Both the position numbers and the translations under genes were made by a program. A stretch of 64,000 nucleotides of DNA, taken from positions 90,403 through 154,402 of the IMG/VR virus record IMGVR_UViG_3300028591_000101. One strand, written 5' to 3'. Origin of the DNA: a virus. Its lineage: Duplodnaviria; Caudoviricetes. Below are positions 1,613-63,974 of this stretch, one piece after another; positions within the stretch are counted from its first letter, which is position 1; every line of letters begins with the position of its first letter. The notes beneath the pieces were generated by a model, which worked only from the letters and a program-made list of their open reading frames with translations, did no database searches and was not told the origin of the DNA.

Positions 1613-4600
1613 AATAAGAACAACAGTTGGTCAAGAGGCTGATAGCTTTCTTGACGTACATCTTGACCAGGAATATGACAGTTTTGAAATTCTGTCACTT
1701 AAAATCAGCGATAAGGACACCTATAGGCTACATAACGCTGATTATGGCGTTATTGTTGGAAGAGTGCTGGCAAATGGAAACTTTGGCGTTCCGAATGCCA
1801 AGGTAAGTGTTTTTATTCCGGCAGACGAGACAAATAAAGACCTTGAATTGTGGAATCTATATCCATATACGTCAACATCAACCCAAAATGACAAGAATAT
1901 AAGGTATAATCTTTTACCGGACCAATCAGTAAAAGACTGCCACAAGGCCGTAGGAACATTCCCAAACAAGACATACTTGCTTGAAAATGACGGAATTCTT
2001 GAGATTTTTGACGAGTACTATATCTACACAACAAGGACGAATGATTCCGGAGACTACGTTATATGCGGTGTTCCAACTGGCATGCAGACTCTCCATATGG
2101 ACCTTGACCTATCAGATTGCGGCATTCTTTCACAGAGGCCGAGAGATTTCGTTTATAAGGGATATACAATTGAACAGTTTGATAATCCGAACCAATTCAA
2201 GAAGGACGAAAACATTGACAGCCTATCACAAATATTCAGTCAGAACCAGCCTGTTTATGTTTATCCATTCTGGGGAAATGAAGATAACGGTGACAATATA
2301 GGGATTACCAGGGCCGACATTCAAATTTCATTCAAGTTTGAGCCGACATGCGTGTTCATGGGCAGTGCTATTTCGGACAATCCGTCCAACGGTGTTAGCA
2401 AAAAATGTGTTCCCACAAATCAAATGGGGACCATGGATGAGCTTACCGCTGGCGAAGGTACCATTGAGATGATACGCAAAACACCAGGAGGAAACGTTGA
2501 AGAATTTGCAATCAAAGGAAACCAGCTTATTAATGGAAATGGTGTCTGGTGCTATCAGATACCAATGAACCTTGATTATATGATGACCGATGAATACGGA
2601 AATATGGTTCCTACTGATGACCCTGAAAAAGGTATTCCGACAAGGGCGAGGGTTCGTTTCCGTGCATCACTTACCGACATGGAAAATAGCATACAAAGCT
2701 ATTACAGGGCGAAGTATCTAATTCCGAACAATCCGGATATTGATAGTGAAAAGGTTGATTATAATTTTGGTACGTATACTGATGAAAGCTCTTATAGAGA
2801 CTTGTTCTGGAATGGTGTATATACAGTCAAGTCATACATACCTCGTTTCCAAAAGTCAAAGAGATGGAGAAATGAAAGATTTTCTGGTATAAAGGCGTGT
2901 AATTATTATGGCGGAAACAATCCGATGCCATACAATAATATGCGCATTAAGCTGCCGTTCATGTTCACTGTCCTCTGCATTTTTGTTAAACTATTTATAA
3001 AGCTTGTGACGCTTGTCAATAGAATTATCGCTGGTATAATAAAAGTTATAGCAGGCGTACTTGAGCTGTTTTTCCCAACAGTAAAGCTTATTGCGAGGGT
3101 CGTTAAATTTTTTAATTCAAAAGCCGGTGATTCTATATTAAATGCTGTTGATGGCATAGTTGCAAAATTTATTAATCCCGTCATAAGAAGATATGGGATT
3201 CACTGTACGTTCATTGGTGACGGACTTTGTCCGGATATGGAAGGGTGGTATTTCGCTCCAGGATGTACGCTAGGGAAAAACAGGTTTAAATCAACAACCA
3301 GAACTTTAATGGAAAATACACTGGCTGCAGCTGCTGGAACCGGAGAAAATCTTGAGGGCTTGGACGGAAGCCAAGACACACAGGACTCAATGAACTCTGG
3401 TGAATTTATTGATGAAACTTCCATTGATGTTCAGAATACGGCTTCAAGTGAGGAAGGGAGTGTATGCTTGACAAGAGATGTCAATTATCTGGTTAATTGC
3501 TTTGAAATGAATATTGCCCAAGAATATAGGGTTATTAAATTTGACTTCTATAATGACTGGGTAAATGGTGTTATATATTTTCCTAGATGGTTCAGAAAAA
3601 TAAAGAGAAAGAAAAAGTATAGAATTTCCCTAAAGAAAGGGGATAAACTCATCACTTCTTATTATAAGGATAAGGTATTTGGTTGCATGAACTCTGAGAC
3701 TTCTCGCGTAAAGAAGTCCAGGTATTATACACAACAATGTTCTTTGCAATATACGGCTGAGACAAGTAATAGCCCGTGGTCAAAGATTGTAACCGAACGG
3801 AATTGCTACAATACCCCTAAAACCAAGAAAAGAAACAGTGGAGTCAACATTATACCTGCGAAGTGTCACAAGAAGCAGGGTATGGACCAGTCAAGCATTT
3901 TTGGAAAAAAATCCGGTCTTGTTACCGAAGAAACAACAATGCTCGGCCAGTTTGTGTATTACTTGAAGCCTTGTGAGTGGAAAGATACCAATAATGGAAG
4001 GGTTCGTACGCTGCTCTTTGCCACAGACATTGTCTTACTTGGTACTTTGAATGATTGTGACGAAAATGGTATACCACAAGCATTCAAATATCTGAACAAT
4101 TCATCTTATATCATGCCGACGAATCTGGCGTTGACTACGATGGATGACGATGCTTATATATATGCTGCAGGCGATGGAACAATATGCGCCTCAAAAAATA
4201 AGCAGAGTCAGGGTGGTACGCCTCCGGAGCAAGAAGGTGTTAAGAGGATTACGCCAAATTATGAGTCAACATATAGCGCATATAGCAAGACTGATGGTGA
4301 TGCAATTACATATGAAGAAAATGATGACCCGATTCCAGTAACGGAAGCGGCGGGTATAAACTGGAACTATTCAGGCCCTGGTCAAGACGATGTGGACTTA
4401 GGTAAGTTGGAAGATTCACAAAGTTTCCTGGCTCGTTTGTTCGGGGCTGGTAATAGAAGGTTTGACTTCCTTTATTATCCAGGAGGCCATTTTCTTGGTT
4501 TATCATGCACAAACAGCGAATCAAATATAAAATCATGTGTTAACCTCAAAAGAATTTGTGAGGTTGGCGCATCTATGTCTCAGAGAAGGGAAGAGGTGCG

Positions 4601-25930: not shown

Positions 25931-25973
25931 TTATCCGGACATGCTACAAAAATATCGTGCCAGGCCTGAAGTT

Positions 25974-57424: not shown

Positions 57425-57673
57425 ATGAGTAGTTTTTGGATATGGGCGGTGCTCTTTGTCAGTTATACACTTTTAGGTATTTGCATATTTTCGCTAACCC
57501 TTAATGAAGATGGCAAACCGGGCATTTTACCCTTCGTTGGAAAATGGAAGAGACCTTTCAGGGTAATGTTTAATTTGTCCTTCGTGTATTTTTGGCCGGT
57601 ATATCTGGCGGTTGGTTTTGCAATCGGTGCAGGAAGCGCCCTGTGGGAAGCGGTACGTGGGATTTTTGCGTAG
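57425..57673 (+). CDS. Two-TM membrane protein
   Basis: Shares DG.KP...K[FW]KRP[YF]RV..LSF..FW with 57123-57374. Confidence 0.65.
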   Translation: MSSFWIWAVLFVSYTLLGICIFSLTLNEDGKPGILPFVGKWKRPFRVMFNLSFVYFWPVYLAVGFAIGAGSALWEAVRGIFA

Positions 57674-57675
57674 TT

Positions 57676-57691
57676 TGGCACGGTTTTTGTA
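57676..57691 (+). promoter_or_regulatory. sigma54-type -24/-12 box in front of RNA array
   Basis: TGGCACG-gttt-TTGTA, 16 nt before first tRNA. Confidence 0.65.
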
Positions 57692-57707
57692 GTTAATGTG
57701 TAATAAT

Positions 57708-57778
57708 GCCTGGGTCGTCTAGTGGAAGGACGTATCTCCCCTAAAGATAAGACGGCGATTCGACTTCGCCCCCGGGTA
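57708..57778 (+). tRNA. tRNA-Arg(CCU), C33
   Basis: Cloverleaf; TATCT-cccctaa-AGATA. Confidence 0.7.
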
Positions 57779-57799
57779 CAGAGTTCTTTGAAAAACAAA

Positions 57800-57992
57800 C
57801 AATCTATCAACTGTTGGCTTGGAAGCAGCCATCAGCTAAAGAGTGGCATTGCCCCCGTTTCGCGAGTGAAGAGGGGATTGCAAGTAAACGTAAATCGTGA
57901 CATCTAGTCCGAGTCAATTACCTCAGGCGCGTGCGTAGGAACTACCTCGGTGAGAAGTGATGGCCTTTGGCGTAACAGCACATGATAGATTG
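57800..57992 (+). ncRNA. 23S rRNA H43-H44 (L11-binding/GTPase centre) mimic RNA
   Basis: TGTTGGCTTGGAAGCAGCCATCAGCTAAAGAGT...GCGTAACAGCACA closed by 10-bp CAATCTATCA/TGATAGATTG stem. Confidence 0.75.
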
Positions 57993-57998
57993 CAATAT

Positions 57999-58138
57999 AA
58001 TGATGTCGAGTCGTCTAATGAAGAAGGGAGTGTATACGGTTAATGCATGACCGCTGAGAAGCAACCGAGATTGGAACATGACAGATACCATCCGGGGACA
58101 AATACAAGAGTGCGCATTACTGTCCGGAAGACATCATT
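57999..58138 (+). ncRNA. Structured ncRNA candidate
   Basis: AATGATGTC/GACATCATT closing stem, internal hairpins. Confidence 0.45.
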
Positions 58139-58148
58139 TTTGAAATAT

Positions 58149-58225
58149 GTGGTTGTCGTATAGTGGGTAAGTACATCTGCTTGACGTGCAGAAAGCCGTT
58201 GGTTCGAATCCATCCAGCCACACCA
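58149..58225 (+). tRNA. tRNA-Val(GAC)
   Basis: TCTGC-ttGACgt-GCAGA; encoded CCA. Confidence 0.85.
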
Positions 58226-58230
58226 ACACA

Positions 58231-58327
58231 AATGATAACTGCATGTACATAATCAATGCCACAAGGTTGGGCTCTTGAGAATATGGCAGATAAAGGTACT
58301 TGGACAATCCCAACTACGGTTATCATT
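58231..58327 (+). ncRNA. Pseudoknotted ncRNA candidate
   Basis: 11-bp closing stem; TGCCA/TGGCA; GTTGGG/CCCAAC. Confidence 0.45.
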
Positions 58328-58331
58328 ATAT

Positions 58332-58407
58332 GCCCCAGTGGTGTAACGGAATTAACATAGGTCCCTTCTAAGGATGCAGATTGGGGGTTCGAATCCCTCC
58401 TGGGGTA
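58332..58407 (+). tRNA. tRNA-Arg(UCU)
   Basis: Loop ctTCTaa; cloverleaf. Confidence 0.85.
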
Positions 58408-58428
58408 CAAAATTTAAGAGTTTAGTTT

Positions 58429-58617
58429 ATGTTGTGGTTTATTGAAAACAGAAAGAAAGAATTTGATGATGAAAAGGTTCCGATGCCGATTGGCTATACG
58501 GTCATCATTGCGATAGTGGCGATTGCCCTGTTGTTTTTCGGAACATATAAGGCGGTCAATTGGGCCGAGAAGCTTGATATGAAAGCCCATGGCCAAACGG
58601 AGCTCATTGAAGAATAA
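58429..58617 (+). CDS. Small membrane protein inside RNA array
   Basis: 62 aa with one TM. Confidence 0.55.
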   Translation: MLWFIENRKKEFDDEKVPMPIGYTVIIAIVAIALLFFGTYKAVNWAEKLDMKAHGQTELIEE

Positions 58618-58645
58618 TGCCCTCGTAGTATTAAAGGCTGAGTAC

Positions 58646-58717
58646 GCACCCATAGTATAGTTGGGAAAATAATGCCTTGGTATGGCATAGTCACCAGTTC
58701 GATTCTGGTTGGGTGCT
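58646..58717 (+). tRNA. tRNA-Thr(GGU)
   Basis: ATGCC-ttGGTat-GGCAT. Confidence 0.8.
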
Positions 58718-58723
58718 CAAAAT

Positions 58724-58818
58724 GGATATGCGACGCGAAGGAATGCACGGCGAGAGCTCCTACGGAGTACGGACACCCGAGAAATGTGTCTTTTCAGGTT
58801 CAAATCCTGACATATCCA
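58724..58818 (+). ncRNA. tRNA-like RNA (acceptor stem plus T-arm, non-canonical interior)
   Basis: GGATATG/CATATCC-A; TCAGG-TTCAAAT-CCTGA. Confidence 0.55.
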
Positions 58819-58822
58819 CAGC

Positions 58823-58894
58823 GGTCCCATAGTTTAACGGACAGAATTTAGGATTCCGATTCCTACGATATGCGTTCGATTCGCATTGGGACCA
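58823..58894 (+). tRNA. tRNA-Arg(CCG)
   Basis: TAGGA-ttCCGat-TCCTA. Confidence 0.85.
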
Positions 58895-58903
58895 CAAAGA
58901 AAC

Positions 58904-58976
58904 GCCCTCGTAGCTCAACTGGATGAGCACTTCGCTACGAACGAAGAGGTTGGGGATTCGAGTTCCTCCGGGGGTA
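58904..58976 (+). tRNA. tRNA-Arg(ACG)
   Basis: CTTCG-ctACGaa-CGAAG. Confidence 0.85.
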
Positions 58977-59000
58977 CCGAGAATAAGTTCTTTGAAATAT

Positions 59001-59072
59001 GTACACGTGGTGAAGTGGTTAACATACTGGGCCGCAACCCCAGGACCGCAGGTTCGAATCCTGCCGTGTACT
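59001..59072 (+). tRNA. tRNA-Cys(GCA), C33
   Basis: CTGGG-ccGCAac-CCCAG; U73. Confidence 0.85.
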
Positions 59073-59152
59073 CAAAAATACTAGCAAAACTTTTGTTTCA
59101 AAACTTGACTTTTTACTCATTAAATACTATTTATAAGTAAAATGCGTAAAAT

Positions 59153-59971
59153 ATGGAAAAAGAAAGAGTTGAAAACTTATTGATTGAATGTAATTCGTTG
59201 AGTGAAGTTCTTAAGAAACTTGGATTGAAAGTTAATGGCGGAACACGCAGGACACTAAAAAATTTCATGTATAAAAATGGATTAACGTTTGAAAGAGGAA
59301 AATTAACAAGGGAAGAATATGATAGAAACCCGAAAATTTGCCCAGTATGCGAAAAAAAAATAGATTTTGAGCATCGAGAAAATACCTATTGCTCAAGTTC
59401 GTGTGCAGCAAAAGTTAACAATGTTTTGTATCCGAAAAGGAAAAAATCCGAAAAGAAGCAAAAAAGCAAAAACAGCGCGGAAAAACATTTAATTGTTAAC
59501 GAGAAAACAGTTTCAAAAAAGAGACATTATCCAAAGACAAGGAAATATGAGGAGAACGAATTATTTTGCGTGAATTGTGGAAAAAAACTTACCGGAAACC
59601 AGAAAAAGTTTTGTTCAGAAAGATGCAAACGAAAATACTATTCATACCAAAATTATCAAACAAACCATTCACGCAAGAATGATGAACTTGGAACAATAAA
59701 AAAGTACGAGTATATAATGAGACTTGGGGGTAAATGCTCTGTTTGTGGTTATGATAAAAATTTGTCGGCGCTTGTTTTTCATCATACGAGGGACAAGGAA
59801 TTTACATTGACCGCCAGAGCTTTTAGCCGATTGACCGAGGAAGAGATACAAAAAGAACTGGAAAAATGCGTTTTGTTGTGTCAAAATTGTCATCACGAAT
59901 TGCATCACCCAGAGTTGAATAAAGAAAAGATTGAAACAATTATAGATATGGAAAGCGGGGCAAAACGATAA
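59153..59971 (+). CDS. HNH homing-endonuclease-like protein with zinc fingers
   Basis: CSVCGY...ALVFHH...ELEKCVLLCQNCHHELH. Confidence 0.8.
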   Translation: MEKERVENLLIECNSLSEVLKKLGLKVNGGTRRTLKNFMYKNGLTFERGKLTREEYDRNPKICPVCEKKIDFEHRENTYCSSSCAAKVNNVLYPKRKKSEKKQKSKNSAEKHLIVNEKTVSKKRHYPKTRKYEENELFCVNCGKKLTGNQKKFCSERCKRKYYSYQNYQTNHSRKNDELGTIKKYEYIMRLGGKCSVCGYDKNLSALVFHHTRDKEFTLTARAFSRLTEEEIQKELEKCVLLCQNCHHELHHPELNKEKIETIIDMESGAKR

Positions 59972-60126
59972 ACTGAAAGAATACCTTTGGAATGAGTGGA
60001 GGTATAACGTACATAAGAGATTTCTTAAGTACTTTGACGAGTGGTACGAGAATTTGACTGATAATCAAGTACTTTACTTCACTGCCTACATGAAAGGATT
60101 AAAAAGTCCATTCCAAGGTTAAAGTT

Positions 60127-60142
60127 TGGCACGGTTTTTGAT
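60127..60142 (+). promoter_or_regulatory. sigma54-type -24/-12 box
   Basis: TGGCACG-gttt-TTGAT. Confidence 0.55.
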
Positions 60143-60154
60143 AATACAGGCAAT

Positions 60155-60391
60155 ATGACAGACAATGAACAAAAAATAGAAGCAATTTATGTTGCAACCT
60201 TGATGATTAGGAAGATGATTGAAAGGGGAGAATGTGAATTGTTTTTTGAAGACGGAACAAAGGTTAAGCCGGAAGAGTATTTCTGGGACGAATCACAGTT
60301 CCCCATTGAAGTTGTCATTAACGGAAAAAGAACGGAAGTTAAAAAAGAAGAAATAGACATGAAAGAGTTTAAACGAAAATACAATCTTTAG
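60155..60391 (+). CDS. Hypothetical protein
   Basis: 78 aa directly after promoter box. Confidence 0.6.
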   Translation: MTDNEQKIEAIYVATLMIRKMIERGECELFFEDGTKVKPEEYFWDESQFPIEVVINGKRTEVKKEEIDMKEFKRKYNL

Positions 60392-60476
60392 CCCTCCAAG
60401 ATACGAGGGCTAAGAAAGAAAATGGAGCCTGCCGGTTACAGGTAATAAATTAAGCTGGCAAATAGGTTCTTGGAAA

Positions 60477-60551
60477 GCCCTTGTAGCTGAATTGGTTAAA
60501 GCTCCACCCTTTTAAGGTGCGTGATTGTGGGTTCGAGTCCCACCGGGGGCA
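60477..60551 (+). tRNA. tRNA-Lys(UUU)
   Basis: Loop ctTTTaa. Confidence 0.85.
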
Positions 60552-60558
60552 CAAATAT

Positions 60559-60635
60559 GGTCTTGTGGCAGAATGGTTGATGCACCTGCCTCTTAAGCAG
60601 CGACGATGTGGGTTCGAATCCCACCGGGACCACCA
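60559..60635 (+). tRNA. tRNA-Lys(CUU)
   Basis: Loop ctCTTaa; encoded CCA. Confidence 0.85.
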
Positions 60636-60653
60636 AAGTTGTTTGAAATATTT

Positions 60654-60728
60654 CGGGACATCATCTAAACGGTGTTAGGATACTACTCTGATACGGTAGC
60701 AATGAAAGTTCGAATCTTTCTGTCCCGA
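60654..60728 (+). tRNA. tRNA-Ile(GAU)
   Basis: CTACT-ctGATac-GGTAG. Confidence 0.75.
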
Positions 60729-60747
60729 CAAGTTATTTGAAATACAT

Positions 60748-60837
60748 GGGAGAGTATCGTCGGCGGTCTGTAAAACCGTTCCCTTTAATAGTGACGTACT
60801 GGCTTAGGGTAAGTGGGTTCGAATCCCTCCTCTCCCA
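60748..60837 (+). ncRNA. D-arm-less tRNA-Tyr(GUA)-like RNA with enlarged variable arm
   Basis: GGGAGAG/CTCTCCC-A; GCGGT-ctGTAaa-ACCGT; only 8 nt between acceptor and anticodon stems. Confidence 0.65.
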
Positions 60838-60842
60838 CAAAC

Positions 60843-60914
60843 GGGCATTTGGTCCAATGGTTAGGATACGTGACTGTCTATCATGTGGTAGGGGTTCGAT
60901 TCCCCTATTGCCCG
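60843..60914 (+). tRNA. tRNA-Asp(GUC)
   Basis: Loop ctGTCta; G73. Confidence 0.85.
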
Positions 60915-60935
60915 CAAGTTCATTGAAAATTAAAA

Positions 60936-61195
60936 AATCTTGACTTTTCCCACGGGCACTGGAGCTCGGTCCATACGTAGGTTTAGGGAATGACACAGGA
61001 TGACAAAGAGTGCTACCAAGTATAAAATTGCCGCGATGCATGCTCGTGTTAAATGGTAGACAGGAACAACGGTAGTGCGGTGCCTTAATATCCTTTAAAG
61101 ATACTGTCGGTTCGAAACGGCAGCGAGGTGGCGAAAACGGACGCAATCCGCCTTGAGAGGTGCAAATCTAAGGTAAGCCTATCCTAGTCAAGATT
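60936..61195 (+). ncRNA. ~260-nt structured ncRNA candidate
   Basis: 10-bp AATCTTGACT/AGTCAAGATT closing stem; GC-richer than spacers; no credible ORF. Confidence 0.55.
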
Positions 61196-61209
61196 AGTGT
61201 TATTGGATT

Positions 61210-61384
61210 GACCTTGTAGCTCAGTTGGTAGAGCACGACACTTTATAAGGGGTGGTTCACCGTAACGAACCAAACCGTTAGAATTCGAGCAGTGGAAAAC
61301 ACTTGGGAAACAGGTGAGGCACGGGTGCAAGTCCCGTTAACGGTTCTAATGTCGGGGTCGCGGGTTCGAGCCCCGCCGGGGTCA
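61210..61384 (+). tRNA. tRNA-Lys(UUU)-like gene interrupted in the anticodon by ~102-nt insert
   Basis: Canonical 5' half to CGACA-CTTT and 3' half TAA-TGTCG...GGTTCGAGCCC...GGTCA. Confidence 0.7.
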
Positions 61385-61406
61385 CAAGTTCATTGGAATA
61401 TAAATT

Positions 61407-61540
61407 AAAGGTACAACAAGACTACGGACAAGCATAAAGACCGGTCTGAGTCCGTTTCCAAAGGATATAGAACTATCCATAAACTTTGGCTCCGTTTTCG
61501 CGAGCGACCAAACTGGTGATAGGAAATGTTGAGTGCCTTT
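61407..61540 (+). ncRNA. Multi-hairpin ncRNA candidate
   Basis: AAAGGTAC/GTGCCTTT and CAACA/TGTTG closing stems, four internal hairpins. Confidence 0.5.
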
Positions 61541-61547
61541 TTAATAT

Positions 61548-61624
61548 GCTGGGTTAATCTGCTAGTTGGTCGAGGCGGGGTGCCTTTCAAGCATCCGACT
61601 CCGGTTCGAATCCGGAACCCAGTA
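61548..61624 (+). tRNA. tRNA-Glu(UUC), atypical D-arm
   Basis: GGTGC-ctTTCaa-GCATC. Confidence 0.7.
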
Positions 61625-61641
61625 CAAGTTCATTGAAATAT

Positions 61642-61714
61642 GCTCCTATCTGCTAATGGTTCAGGCGACCGGATTCTCAGTCCGGGGATTCGGGTTCGAC
61701 TCCCGATAGGAGTA
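61642..61714 (+). tRNA. tRNA-Glu(CUC)
   Basis: CCGGA-ttCTCag-TCCGG. Confidence 0.85.
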
Positions 61715-61721
61715 CAAAAAT

Positions 61722-61795
61722 GGGCTCGCATGTACCAAGGCTGGCGATGTTCCCTTGCAAGGAACGTGTGGAGAGTTCGATTCTCTTCGGGTCCA
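61722..61795 (+). tRNA. tRNA-Ala(UGC)
   Basis: Loop ctTGCaa; G3:U70; weak D-stem. Confidence 0.75.
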
Positions 61796-61796
61796 C

Positions 61797-61869
61797 AGCG
61801 GTATCGTACAAAGGTTGAGTATGGGTGGCTTTGACCCACCAGATATCGGTTCGACTCCGGTTACCGCCA
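61797..61869 (+). tRNA. tRNA-Gln(UUG)
   Basis: GGTGG-ctTTGac-CCACC; 1:72 mismatch. Confidence 0.8.
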
Positions 61870-61873
61870 CAAT

Positions 61874-61945
61874 GCTCTCTTAGTATAAAGGCTATTATAG
61901 CTGTTTCGTAATCAGCAGATATTGGTTCGATTCCGATAGGGAGCT
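61874..61945 (+). tRNA. tRNA-Thr(CGU)
   Basis: Loop ttCGTaa. Confidence 0.85.
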
Positions 61946-61956
61946 CAGAAATATAA

Positions 61957-62037
61957 CGGGAAGTACGCTAATTGGCCTTTTTGTAAGCGGCCTGGTCAGG
62001 AGCCAGGGAGATGCAGGTTCGAATCCTGTCTTCCCGA
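61957..62037 (+). tRNA. tRNA-Pro(AGG), C33/A34, enlarged D-loop
   Basis: CCTGG-tcAGGag-CCAGG; C1:G72, A73. Confidence 0.7.
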
Positions 62038-62044
62038 CAAATAT

Positions 62045-62128
62045 GTTTGGTTGGCCGAGTGGCTTAAGGCAGCACACTGTTAATGTGCCGTGTGAAGAAC
62101 ACCGTAGGTTCGAATCCTGCACCAAACG
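62045..62128 (+). tRNA. tRNA with Asn(GUU) anticodon and long variable arm
   Basis: GCACA-ctGTTaa-TGTGC then GTGT-gaaga-ACAC arm; G73. Confidence 0.75.
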
Positions 62129-62135
62129 CAACAAT

Positions 62136-62209
62136 GGGGATGTGGCGCAACGGTTTAGCGCAATTGACTGTTAATCAAGAGGTTGTGGGTTCGAATCCCT
62201 CCATCCCCG
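62136..62209 (+). tRNA. tRNA-Asn(GUU)
   Basis: Loop ctGTTaa; G73. Confidence 0.9.
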
Positions 62210-62222
62210 CAAAATTTAAGAT

Positions 62223-62305
62223 GGGTAGGTATGTGAAGTGGTCAACCACATTTGACTGTAAATCAAACGCCTCAGGCTTCGGGGGTTCGAATCCCTCCCT
62301 GCCCA
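62223..62305 (+). tRNA. tRNA-Tyr(GUA)
   Basis: TTTGA-ctGTAaa-TCAAA with variable arm. Confidence 0.9.
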
Positions 62306-62308
62306 CTA

Positions 62309-62495
62309 GGAAGCACTGAAAGGAGATTGCAAGTCCCTGCAGGTGTAACTTGCTGAGGGGTTGAATAACAGAGTGGTCGCTCCCTCTGTTAACCTCAAAA
62401 GGAGCGGTTTTTAATCGGAGACATTTTCCCGCTTCGGCACTATAACCACGTGGGCCCAAACAAAGATAAATGAATCAAGTTTTTCTGTGTCTTCC
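62309..62495 (+). ncRNA. ~190-nt pseudoknotted ncRNA candidate
   Basis: GGAAGCAC/GTGTCTTCC ends; TAACAGAG/CTCTGTTA hairpin whose loop CGCTCC matches downstream GGAGCG. Confidence 0.5.
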
Positions 62496-62510
62496 AAACA
62501 GTTTTATTAT

Positions 62511-62585
62511 GCTCCTATGGTGTTTAACGGCTGAGCACGGGACCCTTGTAAAGTTCAAGTACTGGTTCGAATCCGGTTAGGAGCT
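62511..62585 (+). tRNA. tRNA-Thr(UGU)
   Basis: Loop ctTGTaa. Confidence 0.8.
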
Positions 62586-62591
62586 CAAAAT

Positions 62592-62669
62592 ACCGGAGAC
62601 GTTGGTTAAAATCCAACCTTGAAGCCCGTATGCGTATCGGGGAGTAGCTTAGTCAGGCAGAGCGCCGGT
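62592..62669 (+). ncRNA. Circularly permuted tRNA-like RNA (T-arm, closed acceptor, D-arm)
   Basis: ACCGG-agac-GTTGG-ttaaaat-CCAAC...CGGGGAG-TA-GCTT-agtcaggc-AGAGC-G-CCGGT. Confidence 0.65.
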
Positions 62670-62674
62670 TTTAT

Positions 62675-62749
62675 GCCCTCGTAGCCCAACTGGAAGAGGC
62701 TTTACGTTCAGACCGTATTTATGTGTGGGTTCGAATCCCACTGGGGGTA
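62675..62749 (+). tRNA. tRNA-Leu(CAG), short variable loop
   Basis: Loop ttCAGac; A73. Confidence 0.75.
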
Positions 62750-62751
62750 CA

Positions 62752-62886
62752 AACAGGTAGAATCCACGTTAGTTCGGGATTCTTTAAATCGGAGGAAGGT
62801 GCTAGGCTAAACAAAGCCCTGACAGACGTCGCAGAACGCTATTTAGCTGAAAGCCTGAAAGTAACGGATACGCCGATGAGCCTGTT
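62752..62886 (+). ncRNA. Structured ncRNA candidate
   Basis: AACAGG/CCTGTT ends; AGAATCC/GGATTCT; ATCGG/CCGAT. Confidence 0.45.
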
Positions 62887-62890
62887 AAAT

Positions 62891-62966
62891 GCCTCCGTAG
62901 CCCAACTGGAAGATGGCGTAGGACTTAAAATCCTTTCAGTGCTGGGTTCGAATCCCGCCGGAGGTA
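62891..62966 (+). tRNA. tRNA-Leu(UAA), short variable loop
   Basis: Loop ctTAAaa; A73. Confidence 0.8.
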
Positions 62967-62975
62967 CAAAAATAT

Positions 62976-63053
62976 GCCCTTGTAGCCCAACTGGAAGATG
63001 GCAATAGGCCAAGGACCTATACAGTGTGAGTTCGAATCTCACCAAGGGTACCA
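62976..63053 (+). tRNA. tRNA-Leu(AAG), C33/A34, short variable loop
   Basis: ATAGG-ccAAGga-CCTAT; encoded CCA. Confidence 0.75.
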
Positions 63054-63155
63054 AGCTCTTTGAAATAAAAATTTTATCAAAAAATGGTAGTATAAAATAC
63101 TATAACGCCTCTACTTTTTGTGGGTACGAAACTATTTATATGTAAAAGTATAAAT

Positions 63156-63875
63156 ATGAAACGTTACAATCACACAGAAAATGATTATCGAGAAGCAGCT
63201 AAAAATTCCCACAGTATAGCTGGAATGTGCAAATATTTAGGCCGTTCGCCATACGGGGCCGGATATTATATGATGCACAAAAAAATAGAAGAATATGGGA
63301 TAGACATTTCTCATTTTACCGGACAAGGTTGGAATTTAGATGGAAAAAATTTAAATAAAGGAGTAAAACGCTCAGATGAGGATGTGTTTTGTGAAAATTC
63401 AACATATAACACAAGTCAGTTACGAAAAAGGTTAATTTCTGCCGGGTATAAGATTGAAATGTGCGAAAAATGCGGTCGCATCGAGTGGGAAGGTCAAAAG
63501 ATACCATTAGAAACGCACCACATAAATGGAATACATAACGATAATAGACTTGAAAATTTAATGCTGCTCTGTCCAAATTGTCACGCATTAACTGATAACT
63601 ACTGTTCAAAAAATAAAAAGAAAAAAAAGAAAGTAAAAGTAATGAGCCCGGTCGGTGTTGAAAAGGTTTGTCCGATATGCGGTAAAAAATTTTTTGCAAA
63701 AAATAGAAATCAAAAATATTGTTCGCAAAAATGTTATCATAGTACAACCAACAAGAGGCCGGAAAGGGACATTTTGGAAAAGTTAGTAACAGAAAACACG
63801 AATACAAAAATAGGAAAAATGTATGGCGTAAGTGAAAGTATGGTTAGAAAATGGAGGAAAATGTACGATATTTGA
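63156..63875 (+). CDS. HNH homing-endonuclease-like protein
   Basis: CEKCG...LETHHINGIHNDNRLENLMLLCPNCH; C-terminal HTH. Confidence 0.85.
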   Translation: MKRYNHTENDYREAAKNSHSIAGMCKYLGRSPYGAGYYMMHKKIEEYGIDISHFTGQGWNLDGKNLNKGVKRSDEDVFCENSTYNTSQLRKRLISAGYKIEMCEKCGRIEWEGQKIPLETHHINGIHNDNRLENLMLLCPNCHALTDNYCSKNKKKKKKVKVMSPVGVEKVCPICGKKFFAKNRNQKYCSQKCYHSTTNKRPERDILEKLVTENTNTKIGKMYGVSESMVRKWRKMYDI

Positions 63876-63877
63876 AT

Positions 63878-63952
63878 GGCCCGGTAGCCCAATCGGAAGA
63901 TGGCAACAGATTCAAGCTCTGTGTAGTGAGGGTTCGAATCCCTCCCGGGCTA
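63878..63952 (+). tRNA. tRNA-Leu(CAA), short variable loop
   Basis: ACAGA-ttCAAgc-TCTGT; A73. Confidence 0.8.
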
Positions 63953-63958
63953 CAAGTT

Positions 63959-63974
63959 TGGCACGATATTTGTA
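63959..63974 (+). promoter_or_regulatory. sigma54-type -24/-12 box
   Basis: TGGCACG-atat-TTGTA. Confidence 0.6.

Follow-up and report, generated by a model that had tools for sequence, protein, structure and literature searches.

An array of transfer RNA (tRNA) genes near the end of the IMG/VR virus record IMGVR_UViG_3300028591_000101 carries structured RNAs between its tRNAs, six of which belong to conserved, covarying families, and one of these six copies part of the GTPase-associated centre of bacterial 23S ribosomal RNA (rRNA). The array occupies positions 57676–63974 of the window, that is, of the whole 64,000-nucleotide (nt) stretch analysed here, which forms the last 64 kb of the 154,402-base record (CheckV completeness 42%); since the record ends at the window's end, the array is cut off there. 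It contains 25 tRNAs, three atypical tRNA-type genes, two HNH genes, three small open reading frames (ORFs) and about 11 self-closed elements (Table 1). We consider it moderately probable that the array is an operon of stable RNAs, organised in the manner of host rRNA operons, which would yield tRNAs, remodelled tRNAs and RNAs in the shape of translation components, with anti-nuclease or titration roles.

A first-pass annotation had described the array as 25 tRNAs alternating with self-closed RNAs that mimic the translation apparatus. The tRNA count stands: ARAGORN reports 24 tRNAs between 57708 and 63953, all on the + strand, the 25th is the interrupted gene at 61210–61385 (Rfam and ARAGORN intron mode), and a relaxed ARAGORN threshold adds the tRNA-Ala-type gene at 61722–61796. 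The embedded RNAs fare less evenly. A fold test of every spacer named finds eleven stretches with paired ends, which match the earlier list and include the six covarying families, whereas the evidence is thin for S2, S9 and S14 and absent for 60936–61195 (S7). In addition, part of the spacer DNA is protein-coding and not an RNA fold, namely the 62-amino-acid (aa) ORF, the 78-aa ORF, a 50-codon frame and the two HNH genes.

Covarying RNAs between the tRNA genes

Around 15 further arrays were retrieved from ENA, Logan and JGI assemblies via an upstream 164-aa protein and the 78-aa array ORF. Their alignment confirms, at the level of sequence, that S1a, S1b, S4, S6, S12 and S13 are conserved and covarying, and the spacers are thus not unconserved stretches devoid of covariation: compensatory changes are found in related arrays. 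The sets of relatives are small and mutually related, and some of the counts given below depend on alignments selected by us. Closing stems measure 10 base pairs (bp) in S1a and S7, 9 bp in S1b and 10–11 bp in S2, and many invariant G-U pairs are compatible with the + strand only. Single-sequence fold z-scores are modest (-0.4 to -2.7, with +0.2 for S13).

S1a reproduces elements of the GTPase-associated centre, whose helices 42–44 form the site for uL11, thiostrepton and elongation factors. A 10-bp closing stem encloses a copy of helix 43 (57811–57835), the junction (57837–57845) and a copy of the helix 44 loop (57970–57979), with a 112-nt insert between the junction block and the helix 44 loop block. 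Compared with Bacteroidales 23S rRNA, the helix 43 core (22/22), the junction (9 bases) and the helix 44 loop block (10 bases) are identical. The match scores 44 bits, compared with at most 32 for shuffles. The segment 57812–57844 matches 23S rRNA, at positions 1054–1084, in 5426/5426 complete Escherichia coli genomes, with a median of seven sites per genome, and 119 of the 120 loci that the 22-base core finds in species genomes are 23S genes. The helix 43 hairpin is present with its conserved 1065–1073 loop, and its stem covaries among the phage copies, while the helix 44 loop (1093–1098) and its closing pairs make up ten identical bases that directly precede the closing stem in every one of the five copies. 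These five family members share a common plan, with inserts of 103–197 nt; compensatory changes distinguish their closing stems and three of the helix 43 pairs, and both loops are fixed.

S1a is nevertheless distinct from the ribosomal site. It is a predicted free-standing phage RNA gene of ~190–280 nt, outside the ribosome, and its closing stem, which occupies the place of helix 42, is unrelated to helix 42 in sequence. Moreover, the insert breaks the 5' strand of helix 44, such that S1a lacks the compact three-way junction of helices 42, 43 and 44. No report of a phage mimic of an rRNA domain was retrieved by full-text literature searches. Two related proposals were rejected: no other spacer is an rRNA mimic, as S1a alone beats shuffled controls when compared with whole Bacteroidota rRNA operons, and the G at 23S position 1067 is not a phage-specific change, being the normal base in many Bacteroidota. 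We also observe a short C-G-rich hairpin motif around UUCGCGAG that is common to the S1a insert (57853–57876) and S9 (61491–61510), as well as a T-loop-like UGCAAGU loop common to S1a, S12 and the insert of the interrupted tRNA-Lys. A 555-base contig binned to a Eubacteriales genome (L096, CAQKRU010000057.1), which carries one of the five family members, is a fragment of this clade's GTPase-centre mimic, and its placement is probably a binning error.

S1b and S12 are new structured RNAs. S1b combines its invariant closing stem with long invariant single-stranded stretches; 95.5% of alignment cells are paired and 9 of 44 pairs are changed on both sides (double-changed), a level reached in 3 of 500 shuffles, and one-base indels between relatives exclude a small ORF. 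For S12 the corresponding values are 90.5% of cells, 7/31 pairs and 2/500 shuffles. Its pseudoknot replaces a G-C with an A-U pair in one relative, and its hairpin loops are conserved on drifting stems.

The remaining self-closed RNAs are known from fewer genomes. S2 is 98% identical in L009, where it lies between tRNA-Gln and tRNA-Thr, two genes that are adjacent in the window, and thus behaves, as judged from its placement, as a movable module; a profile search does not support it as a diverged S1b. S9 is 95% identical in L029, with one double change and one G-U to G-C change that leave its stems paired. S14 is 98% identical in L009 at the same place, and a 49-nt core of it occurs in another context in L011. 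S7 has no homologue in any of the retrieved loci, in the phage genomes G001 and G002 or in phage records.

tRNA-type genes with rebuilt bodies

S6 is a tRNA-Tyr(GUA)-type RNA in which a pseudoknot replaces the D hairpin: 4–5 nt of the D strand (~8 nt at this place) pair with the loop of an enlarged variable arm. The acceptor stem, the anticodon arm with its 7-nt loop and the T arm all covary, the GUA loop is nearly invariant and position 73 is A. Paired cells amount to 94%, and 13 of 26 pairs are double-changed, a count reached by none of 500 shuffles, with slid controls giving at most 2; in the pseudoknot helix, one pair changes from U-A to G-C between subtypes. S6 falls below Rfam thresholds, with no RF00005 match in the window and 26.7 bits for tRNA-Sec against a threshold of 47, although one relative reaches 31 bits. 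Rfam searches up to E = 1 named no spacer, S6 giving only weak tRNA-Sec and plant-virus tRNA-like matches. Some relatives carry an ordinary long-arm tRNA-Tyr in the same place, which identifies S6 as a remodelled tRNA-Tyr.

Two further tRNA-type genes have unusual D regions. S10 shares 86% identity with its counterpart in L012, and its anticodon and T stems show compensatory changes. S11 is present in six genomes, where 5 of 22 pairs are double-changed, G35 and G36 are kept and position 34 varies; ARAGORN calls it Thr, a call we reject as the gene reads as Pro. The RNAs of Tyr, Ala and Pro type, which the first-pass annotation had counted among the mimics, keep their identity marks for charging and may be atypical functional tRNAs with rebuilt bodies.

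S4 and S13 retain parts of the tRNA architecture without an anticodon. S4 resembles a tRNA in its acceptor stem and T arm; its second arm is long and conserved, its third arm varies, and no anticodon is recognisable. Paired cells amount to 93%, and double changes affect 9 of its 27 pairs (0/500 shuffles). In S13 the order runs from the 3' strand of the anticodon stem through the T arm, a loop-capped acceptor-like helix and the D arm to the 5' strand of the anticodon stem. Across its variants, paired cells make up 98.5% and double changes affect 7 of the 22 pairs (three sequences only); the closing stem is wholly rewritten yet remains paired, the T and D stems compensate, and five helices are supported in all. 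Circularly permuted tRNA genes are present in the red alga Cyanidioschyzon merolae, and S13 likewise places the 3' half before the 5' half and joins the acceptor strands by a linker. In contrast to these eukaryotic genes, the ends of the phage element rebuild no anticodon loop, its tails differ in length and sequence and share no anticodon, and a mature decoding tRNA is unlikely. To our knowledge, neither a permuted tRNA shape nor a pseudoknotted tRNA-Tyr has been reported from a phage, although no search was aimed at either.

The interrupted tRNA-Lys(UUU)-type gene carries in its anticodon loop an insert consisting of a short hairpin and a small tRNA shape. The insert is 93% identical in phage G002, and the host tRNA shows compensatory changes. 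A group I intron was rejected for this 102-nt insert: Rfam gives no such match in the window, and the insert is not long enough and lacks a terminal G. Lak megaphage tRNA genes hold introns, one of them possibly itself encoding a tRNA (PMC6784885). The likeness lies in a tRNA-shaped insert of ~100 nt in the anticodon loop of a phage tRNA, highly conserved between phages, whereas the phage clade is another, the host tRNA is tRNA-Lys, and in the relative L033 a candidate group I intron stands in its stead. There, Rfam recognises the core of a group I intron (31 bits, E = 1.8e-4) in the same tRNA-Lys gene (2267–2824, reverse strand), with the splice site between positions 34 and 35. By eye, the insert at L022 16342–16996 shares a core motif with that of L033, and Rfam finds no group I match in it. 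The inserts of relatives measure ~480 nt in tRNA-Lys(UUU) and ~580 nt in tRNA-Arg(UCU). ARAGORN reads one relative's tRNA as 'tta', a stop-codon suppressor; standard stem spacing gives Lys(UUU), and the suppressor reading was rejected.

Further departures concern the variable arm. The gene at 62045–62129 combines a long variable arm, a D region of Ser/Leu/Tyr type and G73 with the Asn anticodon GUU, and directly precedes a tRNA-Asn of ordinary form; four genomes retain it, with compensation in the acceptor stem. Conversely, short-arm tRNAs of 76–78 nt bear the Leu anticodons CAG, UAA, AAG and CAA in the window (62675–63053, 63878–63953), to which relatives add UAG and GAG (L009 13045–13802; L020 16797–17205), giving a short-arm Leu set with one body and A73. 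Ordinary long-arm tRNA-Leu genes are also found in relatives. Short-arm tRNA-Leu is unusual outside animal mitochondria.

Operon signals and the role of the array

Both the promoter box and the boxA-like repeats that the first-pass annotation had ascribed to the array are borne out. The 17-nt promoter-like box has nine forward copies in the genome compared with none for a control pattern (+ strand, at 25971, 55479, 56308, 56479, 57073, 57374, 57673, 60124 and 63956), and in the window and relatives it occupies conserved positions before the first tRNA, after tRNA-Cys and after tRNA-Leu(CAA). Six of the nine boxes lie within 2.2 kb directly upstream of the array, where they precede small ORFs. 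The -24/-12 geometry of the box resembles that of sigma-54 sites. No terminator-like site was found on the + strand of the array by an intrinsic-terminator scan.

Each of the eight boxA-like copies starts 1–11 nt past a tRNA 3' end. Six are exact, all of them on the + strand within the array, and none occurs elsewhere in the window; with one mismatch allowed, 19 are found in the window compared with 7.8 expected, and relatives have the motif at matching places. It shares 11 of 12 bases with a motif at boxA positions in Bacteroidota rRNA operons, for which all 35 matches in 120 rRNA loci (many Bacteroidota) lie ~80–430 nt before the 23S gene or before the 16S gene. Such leader and spacer sites are the classical boxA positions of rRNA operons. 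As in rRNA operons and lambdoid nut sites, the motif stands within a long structured-RNA transcription unit, but here it is repeated eight times in 5.3 kb, directly after a tRNA each time, and we regard it as a candidate Nus site.

The tRNAs and tRNA-like elements have common flanks, A/T-rich with T at -1 and N73-C-A-A/G downstream, and CCA is encoded in only 3 of 28 tRNA-type genes. The annotated release of the embedded RNAs by tRNA processing is therefore plausible, the elements abutting tRNA ends in this shared context. In phage T4, eight tRNAs and two RNAs of unknown function arise from one precursor, beside a homing endonuclease gene (PMC2330249, PMC9697503), and the flanking context would fit cleavage of a T4-type precursor by RNase P and 3'-end enzymes here as well. 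The two clusters share tRNAs on one strand, embedded non-tRNA RNAs (species I/II RNAs, RNAC and RNAD, in T4) and an internal homing-endonuclease gene (segB in T4). They differ in that the present array has ~11 embedded elements rather than two, including rRNA-domain and tRNA mimics, HNH endonucleases rather than the GIY-YIG enzyme SegB, and repeated boxA-like motifs with internal promoters; no sequence relation of its elements to the T4 RNAs was found in Rfam.

We suggest that transcription would start from phage-specific promoter boxes at three points and that the boxA-like motif most likely recruits the host Nus antitermination complex, allowing read-through of kilobases of folded RNA. The tRNAs would serve as punctuation, with host RNase P and 3'-end enzymes cutting at each one and so freeing the RNAs between them, and a phage CCA-adding enzyme, such as the protein of this family encoded in the sister genome G001, would finish the acceptor ends. 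The predicted products fall into four classes: (a) ~25 ordinary tRNAs; (b) remodelled tRNAs with anticodon and charging marks, comprising the pseudoknotted Tyr, the Ala type with G3:U70, the Pro type with C1:G72, the long-arm Asn and the short-arm Leu tRNAs; (c) shapes of translation components that could not decode, namely the GTPase-centre mimic S1a, S13 and S4; and (d) several structured RNAs without known type.

Class (b) most likely represents tRNAs that are poorly recognised by host tRNA-cutting defence nucleases. Published work makes escape from such nucleases the most likely selective reason, since phage tRNAs defeat retron-Eco7/Septu, PARIS and other tRNA nucleases (PMC11555353, PMC11464382, PMC10264068), countering enzymes that cut the variable loop of host tRNA-Tyr or the anticodon loop of tRNA-Lys (PMC13096335, PMC11555353, PMC11464382, PMC10264068). 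The array resembles these systems, T5 tRNA-Tyr against retron-Eco7/Septu, T5 tRNA-Lys against PARIS and the mycobacteriophage tRNAs, in holding extra copies of nuclease-targeted types that are altered at or near the sites read by the nucleases (PMC11555353, PMC13096335, PMC11464382, PMC10264068). Remodelled second copies are present for Tyr, Lys and Asn. The known cases, however, are point changes in loops, whereas here, as read from the sequence, a D arm has become a pseudoknot and a long arm has been added (Asn) or removed (Leu).

Class (c) would most likely bind and titrate proteins of the host whose targets are tRNA bodies or the ribosomal uL11/factor-binding site. A more specific version, which we hold only tentatively, is that S1a and the non-decoding tRNA shapes are protein sponges, the latter capturing tRNA-cutting nucleases. 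S1a would capture uL11, a protein required to activate RelA, or protect the ribosome's own site against a defence enzyme or stringent-response factor directed at the 23S GTPase centre. A bacterial toxin that modifies helix 44 of this centre has been described (PMC8661411).

Several observations weigh against the operon and its proposed roles. The helix 44 insert of S1a could prevent a native GTPase-centre fold; the folds of S2, S9 and S14 are each known from a pair of near-identical genomes and that of S7 is unsupported; and the incomplete phage fragments yielded no gene for uL11, RtcB or NusB. A Nus role for the boxA-like motif, most likely as it appears to us, is drawn from the position of its counterpart in rRNA operons, and the motif is one base off. 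In addition, elements are gained and lost independently between relatives, which does not imply a concerted function.

This last point bears on the proposal of the first-pass annotation that all embedded RNAs form one coordinated decoy kit against anticodon nucleases, stringent-response sensors and RNA-cleaving toxins. The array does contain genuine mimics of tRNA and of the uL11/RelA-related GTPase centre, nucleases are known to target the tRNA types of which it has a remodelled second copy (PMC13096335, PMC11464382) and a toxin acting on the GTPase centre exists (PMC8661411). However, the elements occupy differing array positions in relatives, where they are present or absent independently, and behave as loose modules rather than a fixed kit. 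The likeness to translation components also extends only to the helices 43 and 44 of S1a and the tRNA-shaped RNAs, whereas five of the six folds left unassigned in that annotation are unlike any translation RNA, and the Tyr-, Ala- and Pro-type RNAs may simply be working tRNAs. We therefore regard such a kit as unlikely.

It seems rather improbable that the elements are instead selfish movable cassettes, MITE-like (miniature inverted-repeat transposable element) or spread by homing endonucleases, which settled in tRNA gaps and whose paired ends are terminal inverted repeats. Such repeats are long and perfect, S1b and S13 change neighbours as S2 does, and the array holds two HNH genes of a kind with enzymes known to remodel tRNA regions (PMC2330249, PMC13096335). 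Yet internal helices covary with G-U pairs suited to one strand, closing stems change by compensation instead of being conserved as a protein-binding sequence, and loops remain identical to 23S rRNA while the stems around them drift; each element is found once per array, on a constant strand, and there is no transposase. An ordinary array whose gaps hold functionless material, such as decaying tRNA pseudogenes, recombination scars and chance hairpins, is very improbable and, although some elements are plainly tRNA-derived, S7 lacks homologues and excess stability and single-sequence z-scores are modest, it is contradicted for the six families, which are 70–98% identical across up to ten lineages with compensatory changes, with double-changed pairs at levels reached by at most 3 of 500 shuffles and with invariant 23S-like loops.

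Phage tRNAs are known to defeat tRNA-cutting defences, and the stable-RNA operon that we propose suggests that this idea extends further: in a whole clade of ~350-kb phages from gut and rumen, the tRNAs are accompanied by a conserved copy of a ribosomal functional site, by tRNAs with rebuilt domains and by several folds without known relative. Should these RNAs be produced and bind proteins of the host, they would constitute a new class of RNA decoys and provide handles on the host factors that watch the translation machinery during infection; were the sponge proposal to hold, they would form an RNA-mimicry arm of phage counter-defence not described before. Regardless of decoys, the array adds at least five new structured RNA families, a non-cloverleaf tRNA architecture that keeps its charging marks and evidence that a phage has borrowed the boxA of rRNA operons for its own RNA operon.

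Remaining contents of the array and its relatives

Table 1. Features of the array and its immediate surroundings, in window coordinates
Feature	Position	Strand	Support or remark
Promoter-like box, 18 nt before first tRNA	57673..57689	+	also heads L009 array
tRNA-Arg(CCU)	57708..57779	+	ARAGORN, Rfam
boxA-like motif, 12 nt, eight copies	starts 57782, 58986, 60637, 60731, 60917, 61387, 61627, 63054 (span 57782..63065)	+	
S1a, GTPase-centre mimic, ~190 nt	57800..57992	+	23S match, five family members
S1b, new ~140-nt three-way-junction RNA	57999..58138	+	seven arrays; no Rfam match
tRNA-Val(GAC)	58149..58225	+	
S2, ~97-nt self-closed RNA	58231..58327	+	z-score -2.3; two genomes only
tRNA-Arg(UCU)	58332..58408	+	
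62-aa ORF, hydrophobic by codon reading	58429..58617	+	78% conserved; called gene in L014, L017
tRNA-Thr(GGU)	58646..58718	+	
S4, four-armed tRNA-top RNA	58723..58819	+	nine arrays
tRNA-Arg(CCG), tRNA-Arg(ACG), tRNA-Cys(GCA)	58823..59073	+	
HNH homing-endonuclease-type ORF, 272 aa	59153..59971	+	PHROG HNH families E = 4e-18; Pfam zinc-ribbon
50-codon frame, no start codon, immediately after HNH stop	59973..60125	+	73-98% identical, open in all relatives
Second promoter-like box	60124..60140	+	
78-aa ORF	60155..60391	+	ten homologues, every one beside tRNAs
Hairpin and conserved leader after 78-aa ORF	60392..60476	+	
tRNA-Lys(UUU), tRNA-Lys(CUU), tRNA-Ile(GAU)	60477..60729	+	
S6, tRNA-Tyr(GUA)-type RNA without D hairpin	60748..60838	+	~10 lineages
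tRNA-Asp(GUC)	60843..60915	+	
S7, 260-nt stretch closed by perfect 10-bp inverted repeat	60936..61195	+	z-score -0.4; no Rfam match
tRNA-Lys(UUU)-type gene, anticodon loop split by 102-nt insert (61245-61346)	61210..61385	+	Rfam, ARAGORN intron mode
S9, ~134-nt self-closed RNA	61407..61540	+	z-score -2.7; two genomes
tRNA-Glu(UUC) with irregular D arm, tRNA-Glu(CUC)	61549..61715	+	
S10, tRNA-Ala(UGC)-type gene, G3:U70, A73, degenerate D arm	61722..61796	+	relaxed ARAGORN only
tRNA-Gln(UUG), tRNA-Thr(CGU)	61797..61946	+	
S11, tRNA-Pro-type gene, C1:G72, A73, anticodon AGG, enlarged D loop	61957..62038	+	
Long-variable-arm tRNA-Asn(GUU), ordinary tRNA-Asn(GUU), tRNA-Tyr(GUA)	62045..62306	+	
S12, new ~170-nt RNA, 5' pseudoknot then two hairpins	62307..62479	+	four arrays
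tRNA-Thr(UGU)	62511..62586	+	
S13, circularly permuted tRNA shape	62589..62672	+	three variants, 4 contigs
tRNA-Leu(CAG), short variable arm	62675..62750	+	
S14, ~135-nt self-closed RNA	62752..62886	+	z-score -2.5; two genomes
tRNA-Leu(UAA), tRNA-Leu(AAG), short variable arms	62891..63053	+	
HNH homing-endonuclease-type ORF, 251 aa	63120..63875	+	Pfam HNH; PHROG E = 3.5e-48
tRNA-Leu(CAA), last before contig end	63878..63953	+	
Third promoter-like box	63956..63972	+	L009: same place after tRNA-Leu(CAA)

Among the ordinary tRNAs, ARAGORN describes a tRNA-Glu as 'D-arm-less', a reading we reject as the gene folds into a complete cloverleaf whose D arm is irregular. The final codons of the 272-aa HNH ORF and the 50-codon frame, related by a one-base shift (59940–60125), are co-conserved where the upstream ORF of relatives is not of HNH type, and this joint conservation hints at a frameshift or a composite gene.

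BACON and BspA-type repeat proteins are encoded upstream of the array, and Mfa-type fimbrial genes are found on the 310–372 kb contigs of relatives from bovine, rumen and gut metagenomes; together these link the array to a clade of very large Bacteroidota phages and point to the window as part of a Bacteroidota-type phage genome of ~350 kb. Protein-based scans of the viral contig collection yielded one relative (G001), to which pattern scans for S13 and S1b added nothing further. Searches of public phage records gave solely a trivial tRNA-Arg match to Streptomyces phages, and none for 60916–61560.

The order of tRNAs is broadly syntenic in the relatives, with individual modules present, absent or relocated. 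In L009 the array continues beyond tRNA-Leu(CAA) with ~25 more tRNAs and a transfer-messenger RNA (tmRNA). Phage tmRNA genes, with tag peptides ending in YAYSFAA, and a tRNA with the anticodon CUA, which would read UAG, are found in relatives' arrays (L009 19719–20089; L021 18453–18826; L011 11080–11152, - strand). Genes of the IS605 OrfB/TnpB type lie a few kb upstream of the arrays in L024 (515–1477) and L027 (2532–3758).

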